Source: Centroscyllium fabricii (Eukaryota). Taken from it: a DNA stretch of 64,000 nt. Every line of letters starts with the position of its first letter. Position 1 is the first letter of the stretch. Of this stretch, positions 4,302 to 57,915 are shown piece by piece. A program made the position numbers and the translations under genes. The stretch lies in the NCBI GenBank assembly GCA_051313645.2, contig JBNRSN020000002.1:219666001-219730000 (forward strand), written 5' to 3'. Under the pieces are notes generated by a model that was given only the letters and a program-made list of their open reading frames with translations, did no database searches and was not told the DNA's origin.

Positions 4302-5474
4302 GGGCTGCTTTTCCCGATGGCCCCGGGGCCCAACGCGTGAGTACGGAGCGGGTACTCACACGTGCGGCCCTTGGAATTGCAGGTAGACGCCATTTCCCGT
4401 GCATGCGTGGGATACCTGCAATTAGAAACATAGAAGATAGGAGCAGGAGTAGGCCATTCGGCCCTTCGAGCCTGCACCGCCATTCAATGAGATCATGGCT
4501 GATCATCCAAACCCAGTACCCTGTCCTTGCCTTGTCCCCATATCCCTCGATCCCTATCGAGCCTGCACCGACACACACCCCGTAACCCCACATATTCAAT
4601 CCCCCTAACACTAAGGGTCAATTTATCATGGCCAATCAACCTAACCTGCACATCTTTGGACTGTGGGAGGAAACCGGAGCACCCGGAGGAAACCCACGCA
4701 GACACGGGGAGAATGTGCAAACTCCACACAGATAGTACCCGAGGCTGGATTTGAACCAGGGTCTCTAGTGCTGTAAGGCAACAGTGCTACCCACTGTGCC
4801 ACCGTGCCGCCCAAGATTTAGATAAACCCACGAAGAAGGCTGGGGGGGGGGGGGGGGGGGGGGTGTGGTCGGGAGCTGAAGCGCGTTGGCCTGCGTGCAG
4901 TGCACTTCCGATTTTTTTCTGAGTTTTTCATCGGGGTAACTATCGGGAACGTTACGGCTGATCAGCCGTAATGACCCCTTTTTAGCAGGTAAGTCTTTAT
5001 TTTATTGAATTGAAATATTTTTTTAACAGGTTTTTAATTTTTTTAAACTTTAAAGATGGGTAAGTATTTTTTTAGGGCAGTTAAAAACTTAAAATATTTT
5101 TTCAATTTTTATTTTTTGTTTAAAATAGGTAATGTATGTTAGTTATAGTACTGTTAAAAAATGCGGTGTTTAAAAAAAAATTATTTTACTGTTTACCGTG
5201 TTTTTGGGGCTCTTCCATTTCATAACTTTAACAGATCTGTCAAAGTTATGAATGGAGGATTCTTTCCAGTGATTGGCTCCCCGCGGACACGTGGTCCCGC
5301 GCGGAGCTTCCCCACTAACTTCGACGCTGAGTTGCCTCAGCGCGGTGCGTGGGGCCTGGAGCAGTACCTGGAATCGGGATTTCAAATCCCAGAAGAGGAC
5401 AACGACAGGTGAATCCGTAAGTCTGGGTTGGAGGCTTGCACTCGCAGGAATCCTCCAACCCGAATTTCTGGGCC
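4302..5474 (+). mobile_element. Non-autonomous Harbinger-like DNA transposon (MITE family A), interrupted by a SINE
   Basis: Right terminus AATTTCTGGGCC, with AAT on both flanks (4299-4301, 5475-5477). Colinear with the copy at 25344-26102. Confidence 0.7.
4423..4812 (-). mobile_element. HE1-type V-SINE with a chimeric (extended) CR1 tail
   Basis: Head and V core as at 2151-2450. The tail matches the 3'UTR of the young CR1 at 6427-8083. Confidence 0.85.
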
Positions 5475-5477
5475 AAT

Positions 5478-6165
5478 AATTCGGGTCGGAGGCTTCCCGC
5501 GATTGCAAGCCTCCAACCTGCACTTACCTAGCACGCTGGCCGTTGAGCTGTGGGCCCGCGTGCAATTCCGATGCGGGGCCTGCTTCAACTGTCGGCGCGC
5601 CGCATTCACGGATCCCAGCGGCGAAGATAGTGCGAGGGATCACGTGGGCCACGGAGAGCCAATCGGAGCACAGAATGCTCCATTCATAAGTTTGACAGTA
5701 AGAGCTGTCAAAAGTATGAAAACTACAAGCCCCAAAACATCACTGAATCTTCAAATAAAAATTTTTTAAATCACATTTTTAAAATATCTATCAATCACAT
5801 TAAATAACTATTTTAAAAATAAACTTAACTTTCTTTAAAGTATTTAAAAATAATAAACCTGTGGAAAAAATGTTTTAATTTGAATTAATTCACCACTTAC
5901 CTTGTTAAAACCAGGCTTTGCACATTAAAATATCAGCTGTAACGTTTTCATACTTACCCAGACACAGAATCTTATAAAAAAAAAAAAAAGTGGAAGTGCA
6001 GTGCGCACGCGCTGCCGCGTTCCGACCCCTGAACCCTTCTGTCAGGAGATCAGAAGTGCTGGTTTCGTGCCCATGCGCTGTGCATGCACGAAACTGGTAC
6101 TTTGGATGGGCCTACGGGTGAGTACCTAGCCTGTGCTCACGCATTGGGACCCAAATTTCTGGGCC
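5478..6165 (-). mobile_element. Related MITE in opposite orientation, abutting family A tail-to-tail
   Basis: 5478-5527 is the reverse complement of 5417-5466. The outer end is CCAAATTTCTGGGCC, and its subterminal region matches the left end of the 4302 element. Confidence 0.65.
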
Positions 6166-6426
6166 ATTATTAATTTTCCATGTCAAAACAAGGGATAGTA
6201 TTAAGCAAGAGAAACATATGCCCACTGTCCATGCTCCTTTCATAAACTGAGATATGTTGTGGCTTTTGTTAAGTCCGTGCTGTGTGTCTCATAGAACAAT
6301 GGACTCGACTCCAGGGTGTAAAACAAATAGGTGTTTATTCATCAACTACAGAGTATGGAACTTCAATGAGACTCATTACTGGACTGACATCTTACATCAA
6401 TCTCCTGACGTCAACTGAACATATCA

Positions 6427-8083
6427 GACATGACAGATATCAGTATTTCTAAGGAGATGGTTTTGGGGAAGTTGAAGGGATTGAAGGCCGACAAATCCCC
6501 AGGGCCTGATAATCTATATCCTAGGGTACTTAAAGAGGTGGCCCTGGAAATAGCGGGTGCTTTAAGGATCATTTTCCAGAACTCGATAGACTCTGGATCA
6601 GTACCCACGGATTGGAGGGTGGCTAATGTTACCCCACTATTTAAAAAGGGGGGCAGAGAGAAAGCAGGGAATTATAGACCAGTAAGCCTTACATCAGTAG
6701 TGGGCAAAATACTCGAGTTCATTATCAAGGATGTAATCTCAGAGCATTTGACAATTAGGGATGAGATCGGACAGAGTCAACATGGATTTACAAAAGGTAA
6801 ATCATGTTTAACTAATCTATTGGAATTCTTTGAGGAAGTAACTCGGAAAATAGATGGGGGAGAGCCAGTAGATGTGGTGTACCTTGACTTCCAGAAAGCC
6901 TTCGATAAGGTTCCACATAAAAGATTAGCATGTAAAATTAAGGCTCATGGGATTGGGGGCAAAGTTTTGATGTGGATAGAGAACTGGTTGGCAGATAGAA
7001 AACAGAGAGTTGGAATTAACGGCTCGTTTTCTGAGTGGCAGCCGGTGACTAGTGGGGTACCGCAGGGGTCTGTCCTGGGACCCCAGCTGTTTACAATATA
7101 TATTAATGATCTGGATCAGGGAATTGAATGTAATATCTCCAAATTCGCGGATGACACCAAACTAGGAGGGGGGCGGGCTCTGAAGAGGGTGTCAGGAAGT
7201 TACAGGGCGATTTGGATAAGTTGGGGGACTGGGCAGATAGATGGCAGATGCACTATAATGTGGATAAATGTGAGGTTATCCACTTTGGGGGCAAAAACAG
7301 GAGGGTAGATTATTACTTAAATGGCAATAGATTGGGAGATGGGGAGGTGCAAAGAGACCTGGGTGTTCTTGTGCACCAGTCGCTGAAGGCGAGCACGCAG
7401 GTGCAGCAGGCGGTTAGGAAGGCAAATGGTGTGTTGGCCTTCATATCAAGAGGGTTCGAGTATAGGAATAAGGATACCTTACTACAGCTGTACAAGGCAC
7501 TGGTGAGACCACACCTCGAGTATTGTGTACAGTTCTGGTCGCCTTGCCTGAGGAAGGATGTTCTTGCCATGGAAGGAGTGCAGCGGCGTTTCACCAGGCT
7601 GGTTCCTGGAATGGCAGGAATGACCTACGAGGAGAGATTATGTAGTCTGGGCTTGTACTCATTGGAGTTTAGAAGATTGAGAGGCGATCTCATTGAGACA
7701 TATAAAATTCTGAAAGGTCTGGACAGGTTAGATACAGAGAGAATGTTTCCAATGGCGGGGGAGTCCAGAATCAGGGGCCACGGTCTAAGAATAAGGGGTA
7801 AGCCATTTAGGACAGACATGAGGAAGAATTTCTTCACTCAGAGAGTGGTGGGCCTGTGGAATTCCTTGCCACAGAGGGCGGTGGAGGCCAGTTCATTAAA
7901 CATATTCAAGAGGGAATTAGATATATTTCTTCAAGCTAAAGGGATTAAAGGTTACGGAGAAAAGGCGGGGACGGGGTACTAGCTTACTAAAGATCAGCCA
8001 TGATCTCATTGAATGGCGGAGCAGGCTCGAAGGGCTGAATGGCCTACTCCTGCTCCTATCTTTTATGATTCTATGATTCTATG
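6427..8083 (+). mobile_element. Young 5'-truncated CR1 LINE (RT to 3'UTR) inserted in the 3' LTR of the Mag element
   Basis: ORFs 6430-7308 and 7212-7982 (one frameshift) carry [21 protein letters not shown] and KFADD. ATGATTCT tail repeats, ATCA on both flanks. Confidence 0.95.
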
Positions 8084-8864
8084 ATCACTACACACACAAA
8101 CTTATATACCCTAGTGGTTGGCCTAAGTACTGCAGTATTACTGCACCACAGAAAGGAGTGCCCAGCATAATAGGTTAAAGGCACATACACAACATTCCTC
8201 CCTTCTTAATTGAATCGTATAGGTACGATGATAAGTACTCAAGGGGGTACAACAGTAAACTATGCTTCACATACATTATTCGGTGCTAGTTTAGTCTCTT
8301 ACTACAATTTTCAATACCATTCTACTCATTATAACATTTTGCGTACAAGCAATATTTTTAACTCAAATGTTCCATGTTAACTTGTCTAAATCGAAAGAAC
8401 ATAATTACAACAATGGTTAACGTACATTTATCACATTGCTTACGAGTTCCGTTTCTTTCCAATCTTCATCTTACAGTACATTTCTTAGCAGCATTGTACA
8501 TCAACTCTATACATTTGAACATTTTAACATTTTAACGATTATTAGTTCTTCTATGAGGTTTTCTTGTCTTTCTCTTCACAGTCGGCTCTCTGACCGAATG
8601 GCCTGCATTTGCAATCTAGTCGCCTTGCATTTGAGCCTCAACCTTATCTTCCTCCAGTTGCACTTGCTCCTGTTCCATTACCGCCAGTCCTTCCGGTTGC
8701 GGAAGACTCTGCACTGTTAGCAGGTTCTTTTCAGTCTCTTATGGTTTAACTATTGCAACCAAACTCTTCTCTTCCATGTCCTTGGATGCACTGGCATTAT
8801 CCAAATACTCATCGGGGACTGAGCACTTTTCTACAGCCGCCGTACTCATAAATCGTATGAAGGT

Positions 8865-9858
8865 TGATGTAATAATGGAGTCTGATACATCAATAACTTA
8901 AAGCAAAGCTTTAATCCACTACATTATCACTATGTACAAAGACGGGTTTTACCATGCTTCCAGGTGAAGCTTTCTCCCCATACTGAGCAGTTCCAGTATT
9001 TATAGTAACAGGAAACAGGAAGTGACATGTACAGAGTTCACCCCTTAAGGGGCTGTCACACCTTGACGTTTTAGCCAGCGTATGCAAATTTGGCTAAAAC
9101 GCTGAACTATCGATGTTTTTTTCAGTTTTGGGCGTATAATAGCGTATTCATAACGAGTTGGACGTATGCATAACGTATTAGTAACGTACACAGAACGTTT
9201 CGATAAGTTACAGATAACTTATACCAACGAATGCTTAGCGTGTTGTCGGCGTTCACAACTTATGCCCAACGATAGTCTAACGTATGCATAGCGCGCGGCA
9301 GCGTATCGCCGACGTTTTAGATAAATTTTGATACGTCGGCATACGCTAGCTAAATTGTCAAGGTGTGACAGGGCATGACAGGGGCATAAGTTCTGTGGTC
9401 GTCCGGAAGACGTCAAATACGTCAATATGCGTTGGAGATACGTTACACATAGGTTCAAAGCACGTTACTCATAGGTTAGAAATAAGTTCCGGGTACGCTA
9501 GACATTATCTCGACGTATTTTGACTTATGACTAACTTACAAGTAACGTGTGTCGACGTGTGTGAACGATCGTCTAACGTGCTTACAACGTATGGCCAGCG
9601 TATGCGGAACGTGTGAATCATACGCAGGATACGTCGAGATTTTTTGTGCATGCTCAAAAATTCTCGACTTACTCGAAGTACAACGACGTATGCAACTTAT
9701 GGCCAGCGTATGCCAGCGTGCTCTTAACGTATACAAAACGTACCCATAACGTATCCGACGTAAACCAGCGTTTTAGCCAAATTTGCATACGCTGGCTAAA
9801 ACGTCAAGGTGTGACAGCCCCTTTAGTCTTCCCCAGAAGTCTGTTCAATATTACTACA
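8865..9858 (-). mobile_element. Solo LTR of an unrelated family (about 215 bp net), interrupted by a MITE
   Basis: Imperfect terminal inverted repeats TGATGTAATAAT..ATATTACTACA, 5-bp TSD AAGGT (8860-8864, 9859-9863). Minus strand has TATAAATA then ATTAAA. Confidence 0.8.
9048..9822. mobile_element. PIF/Harbinger MITE with perfect 57-bp TIRs
   Basis: AGGGGCTGTCACACCTTGACGTTTTAGCCAGCGTATGCAAATTTGGCTAAAACGCTG at both ends, inverted. TTA TSD at 9045-9047 and 9823-9825. No meaningful ORF. Confidence 0.92.
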
Positions 9859-9863
9859 AAGGT

Positions 9864-10423
9864 TATTTAGATCACTCTTTAGACCTTTCAAGTCCTCCTC
9901 AACCTCATTTTGCTGGTGTAACATAATGTTGATTTGGAGTTGCAGGGTTTGCATCTGGTGGTTGATCTGAAGCCGGTGTTGTCATAGCTTCTCTTCCACC
10001 AACCTTCTCTGTCGATCACTTTCTTCTCGACGTTCGCATTCCATAGCCTGAAATGCTGATTGATTGTTTTGTCTCATCTCATCGTTTTGAGATTGCCACT
10101 GACTTTGTGTAGTCTGGCACAACTTAATTTGGTCTCGTGCTTCCTGTAGTTCCTTAGTTAGATGAGAAATATTCCTCTGGTTTGTGTCTAGTCTGGCCGA
10201 AGTAATTGTATCCACTTTGGCAGCATCTGGGTTCCAACCGATTTTGATTCCTCTTATCCATTCCAGCCCCAAGAGTGGTGATTCCCCCGTTCTTTACAAC
10301 ATACAGGTTCAGTCCTGACACCATCCTAGATGTATATTGTATCATCACAGGCAACCTCCCCACTGCTTGGAATGCTTGTCCAGTGTACGTCCTGAAGACC
10401 ACTGGCGTCTCTTCTAAAGGAAT
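9864..10423 (-). pseudogene. C-terminal half of the Mag protease followed by a heptad coiled-coil region
   Basis: In frame with gag after removing the inner element and one ATGT: HIPLEETPVVFRTYTGQ..LYVVKNGG..(frameshift)LGLEWIRGIKIGW, then ISHLTKELQEARDQIKLC ... MQTLQLQINIMLHQQNEVEEDLKGL. Confidence 0.75.
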
Positions 10424-10427
10424 ATGT

Positions 10428-13400
10428 TGTGGCGGATCGCCGGCTGGCGAATCTGCTTCGGGAATACTGCGGGGCATAGCCCCGCCCACCGGGTGACGCG
10501 ATGATGTCACCACGTCTCAGCGTGATGACGTCAGAGGCGCGCGGGGGGTTTAAAAGAGCCTGCTCCTCATGGCTGTCTCTTTCTGTTTTAGCTCTGTGAA
10601 ATAAAGAAATGCTGACTGTCTCTCTTCGGCTCCTGCTTGATCCTTGGGTCCTGTAAGCACCACAGTGGTGACCCCGTCTTGGAACGTCTTCCGAGAAGAA
10701 AATAGCAGCTTAACAGGGTTTAAGCCAAGCAGTCTGTACAGCCTCAGGACAGTTTGAAAACGCAACCTGCAACGATGTCCACAACTAACAGAAACCAGCC
10801 TTCCCGTCAGCAAGGACGTGGCCAGAACCCCGGGCACTGACTGACTTTACCGGAGTTCTGGGAGCAACGCCCAGCAGCGTGGTTCATGTGCATCGAGACC
10901 AGCTGCCGCACCCATGGCATCCAGGGGGACGACCGCTATGACCTAGTCTTCATGGCTCTACCGCAGTCGACGATCGACCGGATGTGGTCAAAGTTACAGA
11001 GCGCGCCCGCAACAGGCAGGTACGACTTTATTAAGGCCGCGCTACTCAAAAAATTCACCCCGACCCAGTTCGAGCGCGACTGCCAACTTCTCAACCTCCC
11101 CGAACTCGGGGACGCAGACCCATCTGACCTTTGGGGCCAGATGCAGGCACTGACCACCGACCCTGCCTCCCTGTTCCGCACCATTTTCCTCCTTAAGCTG
11201 CCCCCCTCCATCAGACCGGCCCTGGCGGCTCTCAGGAACCTGAGCGGTGATGAGCTAGCCGAGGAAGCCGACAGGCTCATGGCAGCCGAGCGCACCCGCT
11301 CCGCCACGTGCGACTTGACCACTGCGGCAGTCGAGCCCGCCCACACGCCCCCCATGTCCACCCCGATGCCTGAACCAAGGCCCCCGCGCCCTCCCAAACA
11401 ACTGCGTGCTGAGCGCACCGGTTGGTGTTACTACCACGCGCGGTTCGGCGCCAAAGCGCACCGCTGCGTCCTGCCCTGCACGTTCAAGCCACAGCCTAGC
11501 CCAGCTCCCACCATGTCCGTAGGCCACACCGGAGCCCTGCTCTACGTTACAGACAGAGGCACGGGTCTCCGGTTCCTCTGCGACACGGGGGCGCACAACA
11601 CAGCATCGTGCCAGCCTCCCCCGCAGAAGCCAAACAAGGTACCCGGGGCCCGCCCCTCGCGGCGGCTAACGGCTCCGACATAAAAACATACGGGACCCGC
11701 AAGCTAACCATCCAGCTTGCCGGCCATACGTATGAATGGGAGTTCGTCACAGCCAAGGTCACTTCACCCCTCCTTGGGGCAGATTTCCTGTGCGCACACA
11801 GCCTCCTGGTCGACATGACCCGGCGCCGTCTGGTTGACATCAAAAACATGTCGCCCATCCCATGCTCCGTGGGGCCAGCACTACTAACCCACGCGGCGGC
11901 ACGATGCCGTGCCCGGAACTCCGACGTGTACAGTGCGCTCCTTTCCGAGTTCCCGACACTGACCAACCCCACCTTCACCGCCCGAACGGCCAAACACGGG
12001 GTGTAACATTTTATTCCCACCACCGGCCCTCCCGTACACGCCCGCAGGCTGGACCCGGCCAAGCTGGAGATTGCGCGCGCTGAGTTTGACACAATGGAGC
12101 AACTTGGCATAATCCACCGCTCCAGCAGCCCCTGGGCCTCTCCCCTCCACATTGCCCCCAAGCCGGGCGGAGGTTGGCGCCCCTGCGGCGACTACTGCCG
12201 CCTCAATAACGCCACCACCCCAGACAGGTACCCTGTACCCCACATTCAGGATTTCTCCGCCAGGCTAGCGGGCTGCACGGTCTTTTCCAAGATCGACCTG
12301 GTACGTGGCTACCACCAGGTCCCGGTGCACCCGGCGGATGTCCCTAAGACAGCCGTGATAACCCCCTTTGGCCTGTTCGAGTTCCTGAGAATGCCCTTTG
12401 GGCTCAAAAATGCGGTCCAGGCCTTCCAGCGCCTAATGGACTCAGTCCTACGGGACTTGCAGTTCATCTTCGTCTATCTAGACGACATCCTCGTGGCCAG
12501 CACCTCCCCCCAGGAGCACCTCCTGCATCTCAGGACCCTGTTCCAGCACCTGGCAGAACACGGCCTTATATTAAGCCCCTCAAAGTGTAAATTCGGCCTG
12601 GACATTATAGACTTCCTGGGCCACCGCATTTCCAAAACCGGGGCCATACCCCTGCCCTCCAAAGTGCAGGCGGTCCAGGAGTTCCCCCGCCCGCACACCG
12701 TCAAGGGCCTGCAGGAGTTCCTCGGGATGGTTAATTTTTATAACCGCTTCATCCCGGGAGTAGCCGCCCTCATGGCTCCCCTATACCAGGTCACACGCGG
12801 GCAGTCCGGCAAAGCCGCTGTCGAGTGGACGGCCGACGCCGCCACCGCGTTCACCGAAACTAAGACCGCCCTAGCTAACGCCACCCTCCTAGGCCACCCC
12901 AGGCCCAACGCCAGAGTGGCCCTCACCACTGACGCCTCCGACCACGCCGTCGGGGCCGTTTTTGAACAGTGGGTGGACAACTCTTGGCAGCCCCTGGCCT
13001 TTTTCAGCCGGCACCTACGGCTCCCGGAGGTCAAGTACAGCACCTTCGACAGGGAGCTCCTTGCTCTCTACCTCGCTGTGCGCCATTTTCGGTTCCTCCT
13101 TGAGGGCCGTCATTTCACAACCTTCGTGGATCATAAGCCGCTGACTTTTGCGATGGCTAAGATCACCGAACCCTGGTCGGCCAGGCAGCAGCGCCAGCTT
13201 GCGGCCGTGTCGGAATTTACGACCGACATACAGCATATCTCCGGCCGCGACAACGTGGTAGCCGACTGCCTGTCACGCCCCACCATCAACGCCGCCCAAA
13301 TGGCGGTGGATTATGCCAAACTGGCAGACCAGCTGGCGGACCCAGATCTTTGAGCCCCGGCAGAAAAGCTCCCCGGCTTACGCTTGGCCAGCATCCCCCA

Positions 13401-14863
13401 CGGCCCCCGTAGTGTGCTGCGACGTCTCACTGCAGCAGCCCAGGCCCGTCGTCCCCCAGGCATGGAGGCGGCGCATCTTTGAGACCCTCCACGGCCTGTC
13501 CCACCCCGGCACCCGCGCCTCCATCAAGCTCATCTCGGCCCGTTTTGTGTGGCGCGGCCTTCGTAGGGACGTCCGCACCTGGACCAACGCCTGCATCGCC
13601 TGTCAGCGGGCTAAAGTGCATAAACACGTCAAGGCCCCTCTAGAAAACTTTACCGTACCAGCCAGGCGCTTCGACCATGTCCACATCGATCTCGTCGGAC
13701 CACTGCCGCCGTCCCGGGGCCACACCCATCTGATGACGATGGTGGATCGCAACACTCGCTGGCCAGAAGCAGTCCCCCTGGCCGCAACCAATACTACGGA
13801 CTTAGCCAGGGCATTCATTGCAACTTGGGTCGCCCGTTTCGGCGTGCCCACCGACATCACGTCAGACAGAGGTCCCCAGTTCACGTCCGCACTATGGGCT
13901 GCCATCGCCCGCGACCTCGGGGTGACCCTGCACAGAACGACCGCGTACCACCCGCAGGCGAACGGGCTGTGCGAAAGGTTTCACCGTTCAATGAAAGCCT
14001 CCCTGTGGGCCAGCCTGGAAGACGCATCCTGGACAGACCGCCTACCGTGGGTATTGCTCGGACTCCGCTCGGCGGCCAAAGAGGACTTGCACGCCTCAGC
14101 AGCGGAACTCGTCTACGGCCAGACATTGAGAGTGCCGGGCGAGTTTCTCCCCGAATCGAACGCCACCTGGTCGGCCGACCAGTTCCTCAAAGACTTCGCC
14201 AACCCGGCACGAACTTTCGCCCCCTTACCGGTGACCCGGCACGGGGAGCCGGTGGCACATGTGCCGAACTCCATCCAGCAAGCCAAGTTCATTTTCGTCC
14301 GCCACGACGCTCATCGCACACCTCTACGGCCACCCTACGACGGCCCTTATAGAGTGCTTCGGGCGGGACCTAAAACTTTCGATTTACAGCTGGGCACCCG
14401 AACTGAAACTGTGTCAATCGACCGGCTGAAACCGGCTCACATGATAGCGGGCGACATGGCGGTCTCCGCCCAACCACCTCAACGCGGACGCCCTCCCGCA
14501 CCACCACCTGCCCACACTCCACCGCAGCACCAGGAGCAACGCAAGACCCGTGCCGGCCGCACCATACGGCCACCACGACGCCTCTTGTAGACTTTTTCCC
14601 TCGGACTGATTCTGGGGGGAGCTGTGTGGCAGATCGCCGGCTGGCGAATCCGCCTCGGGAATACTGCGGGGCATAGCCCCGCCCACCGGGTGACGCGATG
14701 ACGTCACCACGTCTCAGCGTGATGGCGTCAGAGGCGCGCGGGGGGTTTAAAAGAGCCTGCTCCTCGTGGCTCAGTCTCTTTCTGTTCTAGCTCTGTGAAA
14801 TAAAGAAGTGCTGACTGTCTCTCTTCGGCTCCTGCTTGATCCTTGGGTCCTGTAAGCACCACA
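10428..14863 (+). mobile_element. Full-length CsRn1-clade Ty3/Gypsy LTR retrotransposon
   Basis: LTRs at 10428-10664 and 14625-14863, 4-bp TSD ATGT, PBS TGGTGACCCCG (tRNA-Trp), PPT GGGGGGAG. Gag has the CHCC motif CYYHARFGAKAHRCVLPC. Confidence 0.92.
10775..14590 (+). pseudogene. Disrupted gag-pol polyprotein (Gag-PR-RT-RNaseH-IN)
   Basis: ATG at 10775, then LPEFW..P.AWF, LCDTGA, YLDD, TTDAS, HHCC zinc finger, DLVGP..SDRG..CERFHR and a GPY motif. Stops at about 10838 and 12004, frameshifts at about 11600 and 13320-13380. Confidence 0.9.
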
Positions 14864-15820
14864 ATGTCCCAAAAGCTTTTTATAGTAATTCTCATTAATT
14901 ACGGAGAGGGCTGAACCCGTGTCTAGCTCCATCTCCATGTTAACCCCAGCAACTTTTAGCGTTATCCATATGGGCTGACGGTCTGCGGTGATGTCTAAAC
15001 TGTGAATCCTGAGACTTCCCAGCCCCACCTCCTCTGGTGTGAAGGATTCTGCTGCATCATCCGAGCCATCCTCGGACAGGTTGTGTACCTCCCTGTCCTG
15101 TCTAAACCTGGTCTGTTTCTGAACTATTTTAGTTTGTTTCCCAGATTTGCACACTGCCACTATATGCCCTATCTTGCCACACTGTCGACAATCTTTGTTT
15201 CTGAACCAGCACTTGGTCTGGTCGTGTGTGGTCTTGCCGCAACGGTAACACCTATTAGTGTGGGTTGTAACTTCATGAGTGTCGCAATATATCCCCTTGT
15301 TTCTGATATCTGCTGCCCCCAAAGCAGCTGCCTCGTGTGCTGCTGCAATTTCGGTCGCCTGCTCTAGTGTGAGCATCTTTTTAGCTAACAGTCTCTTTTG
15401 GGTGGCTTCATCTTGGATTCCACACACGAATCTGTCCCTTAAGTAATGGGGCAGTTTGTCGCCAAAAACATAATTTTTAGACAACCTTCTGAGTTCTGTC
15501 AGGTATTCTGATTGTGACTCTCCTTTTTGTTGGTCACGTTTAAAGAACTTGAAGCGTTCTGCTATGAATGGTGGTTTGGGGTTCAAATTTTCTTTTAAAG
15601 TGTCTATAATTTCTTGTAGCGTTTTGTCAGCTGGCTTATCTGGGGACACCAGGGTTCTTAACAATCCATAAGTTTCAGACCCCATTGTGTTCAGCAGGGT
15701 GCTGGCTTTGTTTTCATCGGTTACTGCCTGTACTTTGCAATATATCTCAGAGCATTCTAGGTATGCCTCCCAGTCTTCTCTTTCTGTCTGGAAGACCCCA
15801 AAGGTGTTTACTTTTGCCAT
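14864..15820 (-). pseudogene. Mag-type Gag (two CCHC knuckles) and N-terminal half of aspartic protease
   Basis: Motifs ERFKFFKRDQ..GES..EY..ELRRL, LRDRFVCG, CYRCGKTTHDQTKC, CRQCGKIGHIVAVC and ELDTGSALS. Interrupted at 14863 by the CsRn1 element. Confidence 0.9.
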
Positions 15821-16867
15821 GATTCAAAATGGCATTCAAAATAGTGTTCAAAATGGCGTCTCTTCGCGCCCTTTTCCGTCTTTTCACGCCCTTTTTCATG
15901 CTTCTTCCCGCGAAGATGGCATTCAAGATGGCGTCTTCGCACCCTTTTTATGTGTTTTCGCGCCCTTAGCGATTCTTCGCGCCCTTTTTCCGCGTGTTTT
16001 CCGTACCATTAACGATTCTGTGCCCTCTTTTCCGCGATTGCCCATTTCTCTTATCTTTCTTACCCTCACCGGCCTCGATGTCTGAGGTCTGATGTGGTCC
16101 TGGGTAGAGCGATCTGTTTGTTAGGGCCTTGAGGTTGAGTGCTGCCACGCCCGCTGGCTGGGTTGCTCGCTAGCCTCCCCCCTTGTCTTAACCAGTGGTG
16201 GCTGCCTCCGTTGACTGTGGCTTCGATTGCCTCCCCGCCTTTCCTTTGCGGTGTCTGCGCCGTCGGCGTCGTGTCCCGGTGCAGGTCGAGATCATTCCTC
16301 GATGTCTGCCGATGCTGTGGCCTATCTCCTGCCGCGCCCGTAGCTGCTGCTCTCCGATGTTGGAGTGCTGGCTGTCTCCGGTCCCTCTTTTTCACTGGAG
16401 AATCGCTGCCGCTCCCTCTTTTGGAGTGCAGGGTGGGTCGTTGCAGTCGACGGTTGCCGATGAGAGAAAAAAATTTTTTTCAAATAAATTTTCCTTTTTC
16501 TTCTTGGCTTTGAGAAAAGCCTTTGTTTTTCTTCTAGACCACTGTGGATTCGACCGACCTCGTCGCCATTGTTAAGTCCGTGCTTTGTGTCTCATAGAAC
16601 AACGGACTCGACTCCAGGGTGTAAAACAAATAGGTGTTTATTCATCAACTACAGAGTATGGAACTTCAATGAGACTCATTACTGGACTGACATCTTGCAT
16701 CAATCTCCCGACGTCAACTGAACATATCACTACACACACGAACTTATATATTCTAGTGGTTGGCCTAAGTACTGAAGTATTACTGCACCACAGAAAGGAG
16801 TGCCCAGCATAATAGGTTAAAGGCACATACACAACAGTTTTCCCCAATTGCTTTTCCTGCGTGAAAA

Positions 16868-17255
16868 GAAAGACTTGCATTTATATAGCGCCTTTCACGA
16901 CCACCAAAACGCTTTACAGCCAATGAAGCACTTTGTGAAGTGCAGTCACTGTTGTAATGCAGGAAATACGGCAGCCAAATTGCACACAGCAAGGTCCCAC
17001 AAACAACAATGTGATAATGACCAGATAATCTGTTTTTGTTATGTTGATTGAGGGATAAATATTGGCCAGGACACTGGGGATAACTCCCCTGCACTTTGAA
17101 ATAATGCCACGAGATCTCTTACATCCACCTGAGAGTGCAGACGAGACCTCGGTTTAACGTCTTGTCTGAAAGATAGCACTCCGACAGTGCAGTACTCACT
17201 CAGTACTGCAATGGAATGTCAGCCTAGATTTTTTGTGCTCAAGTCTCTGAAGTGG
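16868..17255 (-). mobile_element. Deu-domain SINE (SacSINE1/AmnSINE-like) with L2-type tail
   Basis: Minus strand has the TGCAGTACTGAG..TGCACTGTCGGA..AGGTGGATGTAAGAGATC core and a GGCGCTATATAAATGCAAGT tail. Confidence 0.75.
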
Positions 17256-17707
17256 TAGCAGACAGAAATAGCAATTTGGAGTGATTCCCTCACCAAGTAA
17301 AATTTACAGATATGATCAAATTGCATCCCAATGGGTAGAAGTTGTGGTCTTGGCACAATTTCTTCCCCCAATTTGGCATTATGGCCCTTAAAAGTAGAGG
17401 TTTTCCTGAATACAAAGATACCTGGATAGCTACTGAGAACCCTTTGTCCTTTTAAATGAACTTTCTCAAAACCCATGGAAAGAATCCGATGTAGAAATAT
17501 ACATCCTTCTGGAGAATGGTAGCAGTCTCCTTGGAATATTACTTTCAAGATGTACTGGAGGACAAATTGATATTCAATGTCCTGAGGCCCAAAATTGGCC
17601 AAAAACCGCCTACTTTTTGGCACCACAAAATAACCTGATTTTTCATGGCTCAATAGAACTTCTTTTATAGCCCCATGAGAAGTAATGTCTGGATCTAATT
17701 AGTCACA

Positions 17708-19470
17708 GGGGGGAATTTTTGGGGGGGTCAGCGGGCGTCTTTGGTGGCGGGTCGGGTGGGGAATTTTTTTTTTGACAGCGGGTAGGGAACCCGCTGTCAA
17801 GCTGCCTCCACGCGAGTCTCCCAGATGTTGGGTCTTTCATCGCTGAACAAACCCGACACCAAGCGAGGCAATTTAGATCATTAGAGAGATTGTTAAGAGA
17901 CACTTAAATAGTATTTTAAATTTACCTTTCAATTTTACGTGTTCCCGCACAGCTTCCCCACTGCTCAGGGATCAACATCAGCTCCGCATGTCGTGAGTGG
18001 ATTCAACATTGAATTATCTCATTACCTGACAGCTGCAAAAGTTGTATAAAAGTTCCCATCTCACAGCTGTTCACCTTTCAAGCTCAGAAACTGTTACTTA
18101 CTGCATTTGGAAGACAGATTGAGCTTTATGCAGCTTGCAACTGTTTGGAGCCAACTCTCTATCCAGTGCCACCTCATTGGAACAACCTCTCTCAGCACTG
18201 ACAGATTTGCTTTTATCATCTCACCTTCACCTTCCATCTATTACATCAGAATGGGTATGGTTTACACTCTCTCAGCTTGGTCCTCAGAATCCCACCACGA
18301 TCAGCCCGAACACCAGCAGCACCAGGCACACCAGCAGCACCAACAACAACACCAACCTTTCCCCGCAGCCAACTGATGCTGCACAGGACATCAGCACCTG
18401 AGCATATTGCTGCCCGGGAGGCCAGCGATGGCCTCACCATAGCCAGATTTACTTCACTTGACGCTATACACTCTGGCTGCCACATGATGCACCAGGTTGG
18501 CACCACACCAACACCGAAAAGCATCTCTACAATGTTCAAGCCATTCCTTTCACACTCATCGCCATTGCGGGGGTACCGTTATGTCTCACCATTCACTGCA
18601 ACTCACTAAGCCACTTGCAAAGGTGCACACAAATTTGTCCAAGAACTCAAAATGTTCAAGATAAAGATTTCAATGTTCGACAGCAGATTAACCGAAACTT
18701 CACATGAACATTGGCTAAAACACCCAAGAGCCTACCCTTGTGTGTTGTTAGTTCGTATAATTGGACTAGGATGAGGGTGACTATGAGGGGTGGCTAGTGA
18801 GATGGGGAAGTGATAATGTAGATAGAGAGGGATGGGTGAAGGTATAATGAAAGTTGGTGTGAGTAAGGCTGTGCAGGAGTAGGGTAGGATGTACAGGAGT
18901 AGGTTGGGGAAGGCAGAGTGATTAGGATGTGATGAGAGGCACAGCAGGATGAGGTTGAGTGTGGTTTTGCAGTAATGTTTTGTGATCTACTGGGATCATT
19001 GAAAGGTTTGCACCACTGCAGCCTGGTCCTCCTAACAACATCCCCGCTTGTGTCCTGTGCAATGTGCAACCAGGCTGTGTTGATCTCCTGGGGAGGTCTC
19101 TTTCGCTCATTGGAAGGGAAGAGGACCTCCCTGCATGCTGTGACTCCCTCCATAAGCATATGGAGGGATTCATGGGAGAGCCTGGGTGTAGCCGTGCACC
19201 TCTGTGCAGTGCTCGTCAGTGTTTGCAGCACCTCAATGCTGTAGAACACTGACAGTAGGAACTGTCAAAATCAATTTGCGCATGGTCCCTTTTAAGGAAA
19301 CTGGCATCAGACCCGCTTCCTTCAATTGGCCGGGAAACGCGCTGGGCGGGTTTAACAAGCCCAATCATCGTAAAATCTTTTCACAGTGCAGGATGCAGCC
19401 AGCAATGGGGTCGCACCTCGCCACCGACCCCGGCCTCACCGGACCCGCCTTGGTAGGCGAAATCGCAGCC
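17708..19470. mobile_element. Internally deleted Harbinger derivative retaining transposase 5' stub (+) and Myb/SANT exon 1 (-)
   Basis: Ends GGGGGGAATTTT..AAATCGCAGCC. ORF 18794-19249 (PRLS.ESL..LMEGV..REVLFP..RKRPP..AW.HIA) matches the Myb exon of the 52285 element. CAG/CAC-rich stub at about 18300-18370. Confidence 0.75.
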
Positions 19471-19907
19471 AAAGAGTCGCTTGCCAATACCAAAAAACGT
19501 ACTCTCCTGTAGTTTGAAGGGGAAGTCACAGATTGGAGTGCATTGCTCATTTTCATGCATCTGATGAAACTGAATGTCACTCTTTGTGAAGCTGTCTGAT
19601 GCACTCCTTCCACTGCAGCATCCTTCTGGGAGGGAGGGAGGGGATGTCATAATTGGGTGTCCACCAGAGAATGCAAGGGCAGCCAAGATCCGTGGACTTT
19701 GATTTTTGCGGATGTTGCTAATCTTCTTGGTAAGAGGTGTATCCTTCCATGTCCCGAAAGGGCGACTGTTTCTGAGCTGACCAGTGGGAACATAAATTAT
19801 TTAAAGACCAATGTCCCAGCTGATTTTGCTCTGTGGGTTAATGGCAATATTCTACTTGCAAGTGGATATTAAATGAATGAGAGAGAATTACATTTATTAG
19901 ACCCTGA

Positions 19908-32690: not shown

Positions 32691-33194
32691 TACAGTTTTG
32701 AGCACAGAATCATGGTTTTTGAGTGAAATCTCACAGGAATATAAAATGGAACAGCTCTGTTATACCCCGCTTTCACTGAGAGCTAAGAATATCTCGAATT
32801 CCCGAATTGCCCCGAATCTAAATTTTTGGTGTTTCGGGAAAAAAAGTCAAATTTCGTGGTGATTTCTTGGCGATTCGGGAGATGGTACGAAGGTGTAACG
32901 AAAGATTCGTGGAGATTCGGCTTGAAAGATATGCCGAATGTCAAGAATGGTTTAAGAAACAAGTACGAAGTCAAAGAATCAGGTAAGAAGTGCACGAATA
33001 AGGTACGACCCACTTACGAATGTGCCGAATGATTGTACGAATCCACTACGACCTCCACGACGAAGTTACGACTACTACGAATTAGCTACGAATAGTTTAC
33101 GATATTCGGCATCGTTCTTGACATTCGGGCATATTCATGGTGGCCGAAAGGTATAAAAAAACCCTGACCCCAGGTTGAGCAGGTCATTTGCACA

Positions 33195-34505
33195 ATGGAT
33201 TTTGAACGGATAGCATGTCTTGCTCTTGTCATGGAAATGGAGTACCAACATCGAGACCAACTGCTGGTAGCTCTGAACAGCAGAAGAAGGGATCCCACAG
33301 GAAGACAGAGAAGACGCAAGCGCTGGTGGGTTCGACCATGGATGACACCTGCTAGAAGGCTACAACATGGGCACTACAACAGACTGCTGCAGGAGCTGAG
33401 GCTGGAGGATGTGAACTCCTTCACCAACTATGTAAGAATGCCACCCCAGATGTTTGATGAGCTCCTCCAAAGGATCACCCCTGTCATCCAGAGGCAGCAC
33501 ACCCGCCTGAGACCACCCCTAGAAGCTGGACTGAAGCTGGCCCTCACCCTCAGACACCTGGCTACAGGAGACGGGTACCCGACCCTCCACTACGACTTCA
33601 GATGTGGCAGGAGCACCGTGGGAGTGATCGTCAAGGAGGTATGCTACGCCATCATTCAAGCGCTAAAGGATGAGGTCATGCCACTGCCCCGGACCCAGGA
33701 GGACTGGAAAGCCATTGCCCAGCAGTTCCAAGACCGGTGGAATGTCCCTCATGCCCTGGGGGCCTTGGATGGCAAACACATTGCCCTCAAGAAACCACCC
33801 AAGTCCGGCAGTCTGTATTACAATTACAAGAGCTTCTTCTCCGTGGTTCTGCTGGCCATGGTGGATGCTGATTATAAGTTTATCTGGATTGGCACTGGTG
33901 GACAAGGTCATCAATCTGATGGACAGATATTTGGGGCCTCAGAACTGAGGGAATGCATCGATGACCACACCATCCACTTCCCTGACGACGACCCTCTGCC
34001 TAATGATGACAGAGACACGCCCTACTTCATCCTGGGAGACGATGCTTTTGGCCTCAGAACTTTCCTCATGAAACCCTACTCCAGGAGGGGTCTCAGTGAT
34101 GAGATGATGGTGGCCAACTACCGAATCTCAAGGGGCAGACGCGTGGTGGAGAATGGCTTTGGCATCATGGCCAGCAGATGGAGATGTTTCCTTGGAACCC
34201 TGGAACAACATCCAGATACGGTGCGCACCATGGTGGAAACAGCTGTCCTCCTTCACAACCTCATGAGGATCAGGTTCCCTGCCATTGGAAACGCAGAGGT
34301 GGACCACGAGGATGACAACCACAACATCATCCCTGGAGCCTGGAGGGACGGCATGCAGATGCCCGCGGTTCCCTACCCCTATGCACGCAACCGAGACCAT
34401 CAGGTGGCCAAGAGCCAGAGGGAGTACCTCACGGCTTACTTCAACAGTCCTGCAGGATCTGTTCCGTGGCAGGAGAGAGCGGCAGGACTGAACAAGCAAG
34501 TGTGA
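33195..34505 (+). CDS. Harbinger transposase (DDE_Tnp_4 family), 436 aa
   Basis: Motifs LALTLRHLATG, GALDGKH, YYNYK.FFS, SDG, LGDDAF, LMKPY and RRVVENGFG, with no stops. TATAAAA about 40 bp upstream. Confidence 0.93.
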   Translation: MDFERIACLALVMEMEYQHRDQLLVALNSRRRDPTGRQRRRKRWWVRPWMTPARRLQHGHYNRLLQELRLEDVNSFTNYVRMPPQMFDELLQRITPVIQRQHTRLRPPLEAGLKLALTLRHLATGDGYPTLHYDFRCGRSTVGVIVKEVCYAIIQALKDEVMPLPRTQEDWKAIAQQFQDRWNVPHALGALDGKHIALKKPPKSGSLYYNYKSFFSVVLLAMVDADYKFIWIGTGGQGHQSDGQIFGASELRECIDDHTIHFPDDDPLPNDDRDTPYFILGDDAFGLRTFLMKPYSRRGLSDEMMVANYRISRGRRVVENGFGIMASRWRCFLGTLEQHPDTVRTMVETAVLLHNLMRIRFPAIGNAEVDHEDDNHNIIPGAWRDGMQMPAVPYPYARNRDHQVAKSQREYLTAYFNSPAGSVPWQERAAGLNKQV

Positions 34506-34629
34506 ATTACACAATGACAGTGATTGGACATTTCCTGTGATTATGGTTAAATTGTGAATAAATGGATAAATATGGATAAAAGACTGAGGTGTTAAAATAT
34601 GCTAATTTACATTTGTGTTCTCAAACATG

Positions 34630-34780
34630 TATAAGTTCAGATTTCTCCCCTCCCCCATGTGTGATCTTTGACGTTAGTCTCTCTGTCTTACCTGACTAAG
34701 GGGCAAAAGCTCCGAAAGCTTGTAATTTTAAATAAAACCGTTGGACTTTGAAACTGGTGGTGTGTGACTTTTTTGATAAA
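34630..34780 (+). mobile_element. Penelope-like element 3' fragment with a hammerhead-like motif (34692-34724)
   Basis: CTGACTAA-GGGGC AAAA GCTCC-GAAAGCTTGTA, followed by AATAAAACCGTTGGACT..CTGGTG..GTGTGACTT. The same terminal sequence recurs at about 41950-41995. Confidence 0.65.
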
Positions 34781-35046
34781 TTGAGACAGTATTAATTTGA
34801 AAGTTATGTTTATTGCGATAAATAAAGTGTTAAGCAAAAAAAGGAAACCAGGATTAAAGCAACATTTAAACAGCAAACAAGGATTAATTTTTGTAAAAAT
34901 TTTTAAAACAAACATATAACAACATATTTGTAGAACTATTATTAAAACAACAATTTATTAAAACTCACATGTAACAACAAATTTTAAGAACTATTATTAA
35001 AACACCAAATTTTTAAAACTCACATGTAATTAAAATGTAACAAATT

Positions 35047-36534
35047 TTACATCAGAGGTAAAGTCTCATCACTGCTAAACTCAGAGAGGCTGACAACTAC
35101 ATCCTCCACTGGATTACCCGTGTCTGGCTGTTGGCTTTCTGCTGGTGGAATGAGGTTCCTGACCGTGGCGGCTTCACTGTGCCCGGAGGTTCCTGTCTGC
35201 TGATACATCCACGGCGTTTCCACTGGCTGCCAAGCAGGATGAACCACAGGCCTTGGCTGCCACTGCGACTGATGCAACGGCCACTGGCCTTGCTGCTGGT
35301 AGGGTTGATTCCATGGAGGAGGAGGAGGAGGAGGAGGATACATGGGCAGGGTGGTTGAGTTGAATGGTCTCTGTCGATAGCCAGCTGGTTCTGGTGGAGG
35401 TGCTCCTAGCGATGCTGCCTGGCGGGAATGCAGCATTTCATCCAAATCCCTATCTGCGGTCGATATGATCTGCCACATTTTGTCCCTCACCTCCATGTAC
35501 ATAGTGCTGGGCAGTCGCTGAAATGCATGCCCCATATATTCGGCGTACTTGAGGCGCTCCGGAAAGGGAACAGCATGAAGAGGGTGTGACTTCAGGATAT
35601 CCAGCAGCTCTATCTGCCTCTCCCTTGACTTGCGAATATCCCCTGCAAAGTCCTCCTCTTCCTCCGTTGCTGACACTCCCCCCTTTCCTCCTCCACCTCT
35701 GCAGCTGCTGGCGGTGGTGATGCAGGAGGTTGGGGTGATGGGGAACGGTGGCGTGGTGACATTAGCCTCCTGCAGGTCCACCTCATGATCCCTGTTCTGT
35801 GGATCTCCAGGAGCCGGCTGTGTGGTAGGAGGCTTCAGGCTCTGCACGTTCCGCCTGATGACCTTGCTGATGTGTGGTACCAGGAACTGGAAGCGGTTCC
35901 AGATCCACTCCTGCCTCTCTGTCAGCTCCATCGTTCCCTGGCCACTCTTTGTACTCCTCATCTTCCCCACCTGCGTCCGCATGCTTTCAAAAAAAGTGGT
36001 CAGTGCCTTGACCTGCTTGCCCATCCTTTTGGCCAGTTCCTCCCACGCCTTGTTTTTACGGTCAACGAAGCAGTGGTCCTCACGCCTCTTGTTATAGATG
36101 AAGTCATGGGCTTCCAGAAAGAGGGCCACCTAGAATAAAATTAATATAGTTGTATACAAAATCAAATTGAAGATAGTGATTATTAATAAAGGTATATCAC
36201 TTATAAATATATCAGTTACCTCCTCCTGTTCTGCAGAAGTCAGGTTAGACTGGAGCCTCGCCTTCTTTTGCTTTGACCCCAGGGACACAGGGGATGGAGG
36301 AGCTTCCACCTCGGCAGCATGGTCGGCCTCGTTCTCGACCACGCCCGGCTGGTCTTCAAACTCCAGCGGGCGCTCCTCCTCTGTCGAGGGGAGATCTGGT
36401 TCGGCCACATGTGGTGGAGTGATGTGTGGAGGTACAGCTGCTTCCCTCGGGCTGTCAAAAATCAGCTCTGGGGCGAGCTTGGTGGCTTTGCCGCGTCCCT
36501 TGGTCTTGTTAGGCTGTCCTGCTCTCCTCCTCAT
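35047..36534 (-). CDS. Harbinger MADF/Myb-SANT DNA-binding protein, 2 exons (36220-36534, 35047-36129), about 465 aa
   Basis: A 90-nt AT-rich GT..AG phase-0 intron at 36130-36219. Splicing gives LTSAEQEE|VALFLEAHDFIYNKR..KNKAWEELAKRMG..FESMRTQ, a MADF pattern. Confidence 0.85.
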
Positions 36535-56523: not shown

Positions 56524-57915
56524 CTAAGCAAATCTGCCCAGGATGATTGTGTTCCTTGCAGCCCGGACAGCAATGGTCTCTTGTAATACTCGCGCTGGTT
56601 GACGGGCTTCTGCAGGATGCTTGTTTGCGGTCTCCTCATCCTTCTCCTTATTCTCCTCCTCATCATCATCATAGGAGGGTATGCGAGGAGCCTCTTGGTC
56701 GTCAGGCATCTGCAAGCCATGACGTTGTGCCATGTTGTGCAGTGCACAGCAGACCACGACCATTCTGGAGACCCTGTCTGCTGAGTACTGGAGGGCTCCA
56801 CCTAATCTATCCAGGCATCTGAAGCGCATCTTCAGCAAACCAATGGTTTGCTCTATAATGCATCTGGTGGAAATGTGGCTGGAGTTGTAGCGCTCCTCAG
56901 CCTCATTGGCTGGCTTCCTCAATAGCGTCATTAGCCAAGTCCTCAGGGGATAGTCCTGGTCTCCAAGTAGCCATTCCTCAAGTTTGTGTGGCAGGCTGAA
57001 GAGCGAAGGCACAGTAGACTGGCGCAGGATGAAGGAGTCATGGCAGCTGCCAGGGTACCTGGCACAAACATGCAAAATCTCCTTCTTGTGGTCACACACC
57101 AGCTGAACATTGAGGGAGTGGAAGCCCTTGTGGTTGACAAAAGCCCCTGGGTTGGCATGGGGTGCCTTAAGGGCCACACATGTGCAATCAATGACACCCT
57201 GCACCCTTGGGAAGCCTGCCAGACGAGCTAAGCCAATCGCTCGCGTCCTCACATTTGCGCGATCCCTGGTGAAATGGATGTGATTGTGCGCGAGGGCAAA
57301 GAGGGCATCAGTTACCTGCGTGATACAAGTGTGTGCGGCCGACTGGGAAATGCCGCTGATGTCTGCTGCTGATCCGTGGAATGAGCCTGAGGAAAAAAGT
57401 TGAGTGCGGTGGTGACTTTGATGGCCACTGGTAAGGAGTGTCCAACAGGTGCTCTGGGCTCCAGGGCTTTCTGCAGCATGGGGAGAGGGTAGGAGTGGGG
57501 TGCTGGGTTTGGATGGTCAGCCATGATCTCATCAAAAATGGCGGAGCAGGCTCGAAGGGCCGAATGGCCTACTCCTGCTCCTATCTTCGATGTTTCTGCA
57601 TTGCGCACATGTCAATCACCGCCTGTCGCGAAAGTCGGAGCTGCCTTTGGCACTGCCGCTCAGTCATATTGAGATAGCTGACCCTGCGTCTGTAGACCCT
57701 GTTTGGGGTGTATCTCCTGCGCCGATGGGCTTCCAAGCGTTGTCCCCTTCTGGCCTATGCTGCCTCCGGAGGGTGAGCAGGAGCTTGTCGCTCCTGGTTC
57801 TGCTGCTGTTGCTGTATCCGCTGCTGTATCTGCTGTTATTGTTGTATCTGCTGCTGCCACCTCCACTGCTGGAGATCCTCTAATGCCAGGAAGGGAAGGA
57901 AAAAAGGCCTCCCAT
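56524..57915 (-). pseudogene. HARBI1-like Harbinger transposase, disrupted
   Basis: Motifs [39 protein letters not shown] and [16 protein letters not shown]-rich N-terminus with stops, SINE/CR1 tail inserted at about 57478-57598. Confidence 0.88.

Follow-up and report, generated by a model that had tools for sequence, protein, structure and literature searches.

Retrotransposons of the Mag clade, as described in the excerpts of the papers cited throughout by PMC number, carry a single gag-pol frame with two knuckles (PMC5408684), and have short LTRs, a primer-binding site (PBS) for tRNA-Ser or -Leu and a 5-nt target duplication (PMC3286476). Helper-dependent LTR elements that encode only Gag are already known. 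The plant elements called TR-GAG measure less than 4 kb, retain LTRs, PBS and polypurine tract (PPT), and have one Gag ORF mobilised in trans; in the available part of that report they were selected as protease-free and show no extra coding module (PMC4350172). A first-pass annotation of the locus studied here regarded Gag-only elements as occurring mainly in plants, an incomplete picture given the vertebrate non-autonomous families Bik-1 and Bik-2 (BHIKHARI) of zebrafish and ENS-1/ERNI of chicken, which are pol-less, depend on a partner and encode Gags of ~600 aa with an N-terminal coiled coil (PMC12067270). According to the same excerpt, these are derived from retroviruses, lack a protease, and have the coil as an ancestral feature. 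Finally, LTR elements of rotifers have captured coding modules unrelated to them, which in some cases contain coiled coils, as a separate ORF3 past an intact pol, while TelKA2n is pol-less but retains an env-like ORF (PMC5408684). Here we describe a Mag-type element in which a predicted coding helix occupies the place of reverse transcriptase (RT).

Structure of the element and its nested insertions

The element lies on the minus strand of the 64,000-nt stretch of DNA that was analysed (the window) and measures 3,470 nt once four nested insertions are taken out. Its parts, in window coordinates, are:

6267..6426, minus strand: 3' LTR, outer part, from LTR comparison
6427..8087, plus strand: CR1-type LINE, 5'-truncated, inside the 3' LTR, with a 4-nt duplication or microhomology
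8088..8194, minus strand: 3' LTR, inner part, from LTR comparison
8195..8207, minus strand: PPT, just inside the 3' LTR, from sequence
8532..8864, minus strand: acidic E/Q/K-rich tail with a basic C-terminal stretch, end stop at 8532-8534
8865..9858, minus strand: solo LTR of a different family, 5-nt duplication
9048..9822, no strand assigned: MITE inside the solo LTR, terminal inverted repeats, 3-nt duplication
9862..10230, minus strand: long helix / coiled coil (predicted) that continues the frame of the protease end and is interrupted by a stop at 9982-9984
10234..10427, minus strand: second protease half, frame break within ~10275-10293
10428..14863, plus strand: LTR element nested here that encodes gag, PR, RT, RNase H and integrase, 4-nt duplication
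14867..15820, minus strand: gag and first protease half with D-T-G, open over 318 aa, with capsid and two CCHC knuckles
16506..16524, minus strand: histone-mRNA-type stem-loop in the leader, ~35 nt past the PBS
16558..16568, minus strand: PBS, 1 nt inside the LTR, from sequence
16570..16836, minus strand: 5' LTR, TG...CA, 267 nt, 8/267 differences from the two 3' LTR parts

The anatomy proposed by the first-pass annotation held for both LTRs (each of 267 nt, with 8 differing sites), the PBS, the PPT and the four insertions with their flanking duplications, but the outer target duplication matches at only 4/5 positions. We take the PBS to be of the tRNA-Ser type and the LINE to be a CR1, named by its translation features. 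The nested element at 10428..14863, whose own LTRs are 95.8% identical, is presumably of the CsRn1 type.

The leader stem-loop is an exact match to the histone-mRNA consensus, and even a match at one mismatch appeared in only 2/100 shuffles. It scores 28.3 bits against Rfam RF00032 (gathering threshold 34; E 6.7e-4, with the whole window searched), and is paired in the centroid fold and unpaired in the MFE fold. The combination of a PBS with such a stem-loop was absent from the viral contigs searched; its single match elsewhere (L001) lies inside a bacterial recA and was rejected as a chance occurrence.

Gag and protease

From the ATG at 15820, gag runs into the protease in one open frame through D-T-G. 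The protein has matches to the PNMA and zf-CCHC domains, begins directly with the capsid-like region, as do Mag-like relatives, and contains the two adjacent CCHC knuckles that are a trait of the Mag clade. The best relative of Gag-protease is 47% identical, and the named top matches are K02A2.6-like, a database name that we take to denote the Mag clade. No close locus to Gag was found among viral contigs.

The protease had been described as complete. Its D-T-G site and length are indeed preserved, as are the two knuckles upstream, but its frame is broken where the tblastn alignment of relatives passes from frame -2 to frame -3 (~10275-10293), and one conserved residue of the closing motif differs from 135/137 relatives.

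A helix and an acidic tail in the place of pol

About 230 codons follow the protease and encode neither RT nor RNase H nor integrase, in agreement with the earlier claim that pol has left no trace. When 120 Mag-like relatives were compared with the tail pieces by tblastn, the best match to post-protease positions remained below 25 bits. A linker plus RT-start profile gave 2.1 bits for the tail vs at least 20 bits in 119/119 relatives (those with 80+ residues beyond the protease motif, all of which carry RT there). Two possible pol remnants were considered and gained no support: the tail end as a Mag integrase C-terminus (2.8 bits vs shuffles up to 7.0), and the first helix as an old protease-RT linker helix (1.5 bits vs a shuffle 95th percentile of 2.7).

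AlphaFold predicts helices at residues 24-102 and 106-143 of the helix region (pLDDT 86) and a mostly disordered acidic tail (pLDDT 57.7). The ordered coiled coil of the first-pass annotation is supported by this predicted helix and by the second heptad run, which only 14/2000 shuffles equalled, but the first run is not significant (189/2000) and the E/Q/K tail has no heptads (1971/2000). Likewise, the direct continuation out of the protease applies to the helix, which is in frame with the protease end, but not beyond the stop at 9982-9984 nor to the acidic tail, which lies in a different frame after a break near 8847-8850 and has further stops at 8739-8741 and 8616-8618. Beyond gag, the window copy therefore has two frame breaks and three stops, hence no single frame. 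The stop-free frames of 123 and 104 codons have chance probabilities of 5e-4 and 2e-3 at local composition, and GC by codon position in helix and tail resembles the gag pattern, while the UTRs are flat. An open frame would also be expected after recent capture of any coding piece.

No relative or donor of the tail was found. The acidic tail was searched against Pfam, the window and custom profiles, and the large protein searches were run without it. We obtained no match for the tail in Pfam, among PDB folds, in viral and metagenome contigs or elsewhere within the window, no homologue among 217 candidate longer proteins, and nothing among PDB sequences (best E 0.61, a flagellin). The sole match among 1.84 billion representatives (P0122) was summed over six repeats of a fungal protein without Gag similarity and was rejected. 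The counter-case named with the original claim, that the tail could be a known transposon or host gene, finds no match in Pfam, PDB, the representatives or the window.

Related copies in two other organisms

Contigs were compared from 4 of 22 listed runs, over 8088-10470, and their summed depth is not equivalent to copy number. All 30/30 bins of this interval are covered in X1 (organism A) and X7 (organism B). Protease, helix and tail have similar summed depth in both (4,400-19,700 in X1, 3' UTR included), with helix/protease ratios of 1.5 in X1 and 2.7 in X7 and an LTR/helix ratio of ~5 in each; for comparison, single X1 pieces have depths of 7.6-12.4 in five of the eight cases listed, far below these sums. 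The solo LTR belongs to a far more abundant family, at 105-144x the summed depth of the helix region. Joints without the MITE occur in 14 contigs of X1 and 6 of X7, and the MITE is present in X10 and X13 too, both of which cover it alone (11/30 bins), a gap in cover that is no evidence of absence.

Because the entire depth differs from the window at many sites, X1 and X7 contain other copies and not that of the window. At the first base of the stops 9982-9984, 8739-8741 and 8616-8618, a letter other than that of the window accounts for 95, 100 and 100% of the X1 depth (18, 15 and 23 contigs) and for 100, 99 and 100% of the X7 depth (4, 10 and 15 contigs). Length differences at 8847/8849 make up ~98% of a low X1 depth (3 contigs). 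Since depth is even and high over protease, helix and tail, and 95-100% of it is free of the window's three stops, these comparisons support the tail being a multi-copy coding feature at the level of the family, and not private to the window locus. The earlier proposal of a family gains from this even depth and from stop letters at 5% of depth or less, but none of the 32 listed pieces, of ~73,700, spans the protease/helix junction or shows a complete further copy.

A single diverged X1 contig joins the 3' UTR to the LTR (23 other letters, 18 gap letters). Just inside the PPT, at 8212-8220, X1 depth reaches 47,000-83,000, several-fold above the tail, which hints at sister elements sharing this 3' end, among which a partner may be found.

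Comparison with known elements

The element shares with Mag relatives from fish and marine invertebrates the two CCHC knuckles that precede a D-T-G protease in one frame, an identity of 33-50% in Gag-protease to the relatives listed, and short LTRs; its PBS is putatively of the Ser/Leu type and its target duplication matches at 4/5 nt. It differs from an autonomous Mag in that ~230 codons of predicted helix and disordered tail take the place of RT, RNase H and integrase. Its size, LTRs, PBS and PPT are those of a TR-GAG, but it codes for a protease and tail in addition to Gag. Where Bik/ERNI-type Gags have their coil at the N-terminus, here the predicted coil is C-terminal, behind the protease at the place of RT. 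Unlike the modules of rotifer elements, this one replaces pol in frame, and there is no transmembrane segment behind the protease (top 19-residue hydropathy 0.26), in contrast to an env-like ORF3. In the literature searched (most subscription papers, supplements and Repbase/Dfam being outside its scope), we found neither a Mag element lacking pol and carrying a coiled coil nor an SLBP site beside a PBS, nor any precedent for a new coding helix at the place of RT.

Possible origin and function of the tail

Our main interpretation, to which we assign a probability of roughly 0.5, is that the window holds a decayed member of a multi-copy Mag-type family, whose members would encode a Gag-protease-coil-tail polyprotein, depend on a helper for Pol, and use the coil to pair the protease. 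Its members likely produce a single Gag-protease-tail polyprotein from one continuous frame, and a helper element likely supplies the Pol that copies them, with mobilisation in trans through PBS, PPT and LTR ends. Such an element would assemble a capsid of its own, with its own RNA inside and a little helper Gag-Pol let in, and would mature this capsid itself. The coiled coil could stand in for RT as the pairing module that unites two protease halves, because in Mag gag and pol share one frame and RT normally sits behind the protease. A distant analogy is offered by HIV-1, where the activation of the protease relies on dimerisation of Gag-Pol, a step that involves RT, and is enhanced by a fused leucine zipper (PMC11998509, PMC5899837, in the parts available). 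By this model, pairing the protease is the predicted most likely role of the helix. A bolder version remains tentative and rather unlikely: a retrotransposon parasite that swapped its copying machinery for a protease-pairing coil, forming its own capsids with helper enzymes, and whose leader stem-loop could recruit SLBP.

Alternatively, the helper-dependent family may be real but its tail a mere passenger, a coding piece of another transposon or of a host gene that recombined into the place behind the protease not long before the family burst. Such a piece would be open only through its coding origin, and it would take no great luck to land in frame. ORF1 proteins of transposons and the N-termini of Gag often contain long helices, and this group of animals seems sparsely represented in the databases, because the best Gag relative is no closer than 47%. 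We nevertheless judge this unlikely, as no donor emerged from the protein representatives (the one repeat match being spurious), Pfam, PDB or the window, and as tail depth is close to protease depth, so that X1 and X7 show no large separate donor family sharing at least 80% identity.

A tail protein kept for another job, as a dominant-negative or competing Gag that would poison or divert helper particles, or as a host-facing coil of the Bik-1 and ERNI sort, possibly with a dead protease, is likewise improbable. The altered protease motif, the frame break at ~10275-10293 and the basic stretch at the tail end would fit, and Bik and ERNI Gags with long coiled coils influence development, but in the excerpt describing them that coil is an N-terminal, ancestral part of Gag (PMC12067270), and here the protease retains both its D-T-G site and its length.

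We consider very unlikely a TR-GAG-like, Gag-only family in which the protease break is shared and the region of helix and tail is a relic, either without translation or translated on its own. The protease frame break may be family-wide, and no length difference is listed within 10275-10293 despite 3 X1 contigs counted at 10290. However, the three tail stops are private to the window copy and the codon pattern is coding-like. The X1 depth of 616 at 10290 is also compatible with a private break, since the private break at 8847 shows a similar drop (~520).

Lastly, an ordinary Mag copy that lost pol and received unrelated sequence in the gap would suit an insertion hot spot with four nested elements and a protease/helix junction spanned by none of the listed pieces, but it is highly improbable in view of the even depth from protease to 3' UTR in two organisms, the diverged contig linking 3' UTR and LTR, and the other copies in X1/X7.

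Implications

Non-autonomous LTR elements are usually viewed as deletion products. In the family proposed here, a coding module without known relative would instead stand at the place of pol and would have multiplied, its frame open, in two organisms or more, as a gypsy-type addition to the vertebrate Gag-only families, some of which affect development. If selection keeps the tail, it would show what single-frame gag-pol elements need behind the protease beyond enzymes, and would provide a natural test of RT as a pairing module for protease activation.

Structure of the outer element

The Mag-type LTR element on the minus strand (6267-16836) is interrupted by four insertions, each carrying its own duplication, and their removal leaves 3,470 nt; both the insertions and the size of about 3.5 kb had been read correctly in the first-pass annotation.

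16570-16836, minus strand: 5' LTR (sequence comparison)
6267-6426 and 8088-8194, minus strand: 3' LTR in two pieces (sequence comparison)
16506-16524, minus strand, sense of the element: histone-mRNA-type stem-loop, about 35 nt past the PBS
Inside the outer 3' LTR: LINE truncated on the 5' side, labelled CR1-type, with own duplication
8865-9858: solo LTR containing a MITE, with own duplication
9048-9822: MITE within the solo LTR, with own duplication
10428-14863: full LTR element, with own duplication; Pfam recognises RT, RNase H and integrase

The outer LTRs differ at 8 of 267 positions, the PBS begins 1 base inside the 5' LTR, and a purine tract (PPT) adjoins the 3' LTR. These features had all been claimed, together with a target site duplication, of which only four of five bases are identical. 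The stem-loop has the exact consensus (2 of 100 shuffles give a match when one mismatch is allowed) and hits Rfam RF00032 at E 6.7e-4 on the window, with a score below gathering. It was not found together with a PBS in viral or metagenome contigs, and may be a binding site for SLBP, a hairpin used in packaging or a chance match.

We take the truncated LINE to be CR1-type and the full nested element to be CsRn1, both labels being given without a tree. The latter is nearly complete with several frame breaks, and a relative (LTR about 75% alike, minus strand) lies at about 61260-64000, at the window end. The nested MITE is also present in two further organisms (C and D). A palindromic MITE-like element of nested inverted repeats (5008-5880) sits beside the outer 3' LTR. 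Elsewhere, a 445-codon transposase-like frame (plus strand) faces a 360-codon frame (minus strand) at 33168-36129, presumably resembling a two-gene Harbinger element, with a second such transposase piece at 56524-57516. Judged by its repeat features alone, the host has the look of a cartilaginous fish.

Gag-protease without pol

A capsid-like region and two CCHC knuckles are encoded in a frame of 318 codons from the ATG at 15820, along with the D-T-G-bearing half of a protease. Just upstream (15826-15990), the sequence has short tandem units, degenerate in sequence, and recurring motifs, which we take to resemble YY1 sites. The closest relatives of the gag-protease are K02A2.6-like polyproteins (identity up to 47-50%; 240 of 560 matches listed). 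The protease picks up again at 10427, with a frame shift within about 10275-10293, and homology stops near 10234. Contig depth at 10290 is 616, with no length difference there among the differences listed, and this break may be common to the whole family. The closing motif is recognisable in 137 of the 240 listed relatives, and a residue common to 135 of these is changed in the window copy. Together with two frame breaks and three stops, this change marks the copy as decayed. The knuckles and D-T-G of the annotated Gag-protease stand, but the frame break and altered motif speak against a complete protease here.

At least 80 residues follow the motif in 119 of the 137 relatives. A linker-plus-RT profile, built from 40 of the 119 relatives scored with it, gives at least 20 bits in all 119, against 2.1 bits for the window tail (helix region 9862-10230 and acidic tail 8532-8864, about 230 codons). 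Neither Pfam nor comparison with relatives picked up RT, RNase H or integrase in the tail pieces, in agreement with the annotated lack of RT and integrase.

In the structural check proposed earlier, AlphaFold (single sequence, X in place of the stop) predicts long helices in the helix region at residues 24-102 and 106-143 (pLDDT 86, pTM 0.45), then 110 mostly disordered codons (pLDDT 57.7). Heptad enrichment is significant in the second helix (14/2000 shuffles as good) but weak in the first (189/2000), so the "clear heptads" hold for one helix only; the same test finds none in the acidic tail. The tail has no membrane segment. Searches of proteins, Pfam, PDB sequences and folds, and viral or metagenome contigs gave no homologue of the helix region; its sole match, protein P0122, was a repeat artefact.

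The tail in other copies

Contigs from 4 of 22 listed runs were aligned to 8088-10470 at 80% likeness. Cover is complete (30/30 bins) in X1, from organism A, and in X7, from organism B, and confined to the MITE in X10 and X13. Summed X1 depth is 4,400-19,700 across protease, helix, tail and 3' UTR (individual depth 7.6-12.4 in five of eight pieces listed), with helix/protease ratios of 1.5 (X1) and 2.7 (X7) and LTR/helix ratios of about 5 in both; such depth is not copy number, and we read from it no more than the presence of numerous copies in similar proportion. Sites where 100% of depth differs from the window are many, and X1 and X7 therefore contain other copies. One diverged X1 contig bridges 3' UTR and LTR. 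The solo LTR family reaches about 100-140 times the helix depth in both runs.

The first bases of the three stops, all among the 40 shown of 146 differences, carry a non-window letter in 95, 100 and 100% of depth (X1) and 100, 99 and 100% (X7). Length differences at 8847/8849 make up about 98% of a low X1 depth (3 contigs) and occur in one X7 contig, as expected if this frame break is private to the window copy. At local composition, runs of 123 and 104 codons free of stops would arise with chances of 5e-4 and 2e-3, and codon-position GC of helix and tail is like that of gag, the UTRs being flat. Because the stops are not common to other copies, the frames are improbably open and the GC is gag-like, the tail is coding at the family level. 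Of the proposed mobilised family, the many copies and the open tail are supported, although none of 32 listed pieces (of about 73,700) spans the protease/helix junction. Taken alone, this family-level part is very probable.

Just inside the PPT (8212-8220), depth reaches 47,000-83,000 (X1) and 1,800-2,600 (X7), several times that of the tail. This excess (8195-8245) hints that there are sister elements which share the LTR and 3' end but differ in their interior, possibly including the helper, a pol-bearing partner.

A possible substitute for RT

TR-GAG elements are shorter than 4 kb, encode Gag alone in their ORF and were chosen for lack of protease (PMC4350172, PMC9784723); the window element is also under 4 kb but has protease and tail. 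Zebrafish Bik-1/2 and chicken ENS-1, vertebrate Gag families without pol, have an N-terminal coil (PMC12067270, in part), whereas here it lies behind the protease. Mosquito Mag elements have a Ser/Leu PBS and mostly 5-nt duplications (excerpts of PMC3286476). The portions available of PMC4079200 and PMC5381603 contain no design of this kind, and in the literature searched, Repbase, Dfam and supplements apart, no Mag element turned up that lacks pol and has a coil following its protease.

The observed set is LTRs, PBS, PPT, gag-protease, no pol, and a multi-copy open tail. Two explanations of the tail are unlikely to a similar degree: a captured passenger, and another function, with a protease possibly dead, as the changed closing motif might suggest. 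A Gag-only family is improbable; a one-off at this locus, given the other copies in X1 and X7, is scarcely credible.

The pol-less design is real at this locus and very probably present at more than one. In Mag elements gag runs into pol without a frameshift (PMC5408684), and the region behind the protease is therefore present on every subunit. Activation of the HIV-1 protease requires dimerisation of Gag-Pol, with RT involved, and is enhanced by a fused leucine zipper (PMC11998509, PMC5899837). On these two grounds the predicted helix would most likely take over RT's place as pairing module, in a family that would make a single polyprotein (about 600 residues) and be copied in trans. We give this whole account, a helper-dependent multi-copy family in which a helix may replace RT, a probability of about 0.5.
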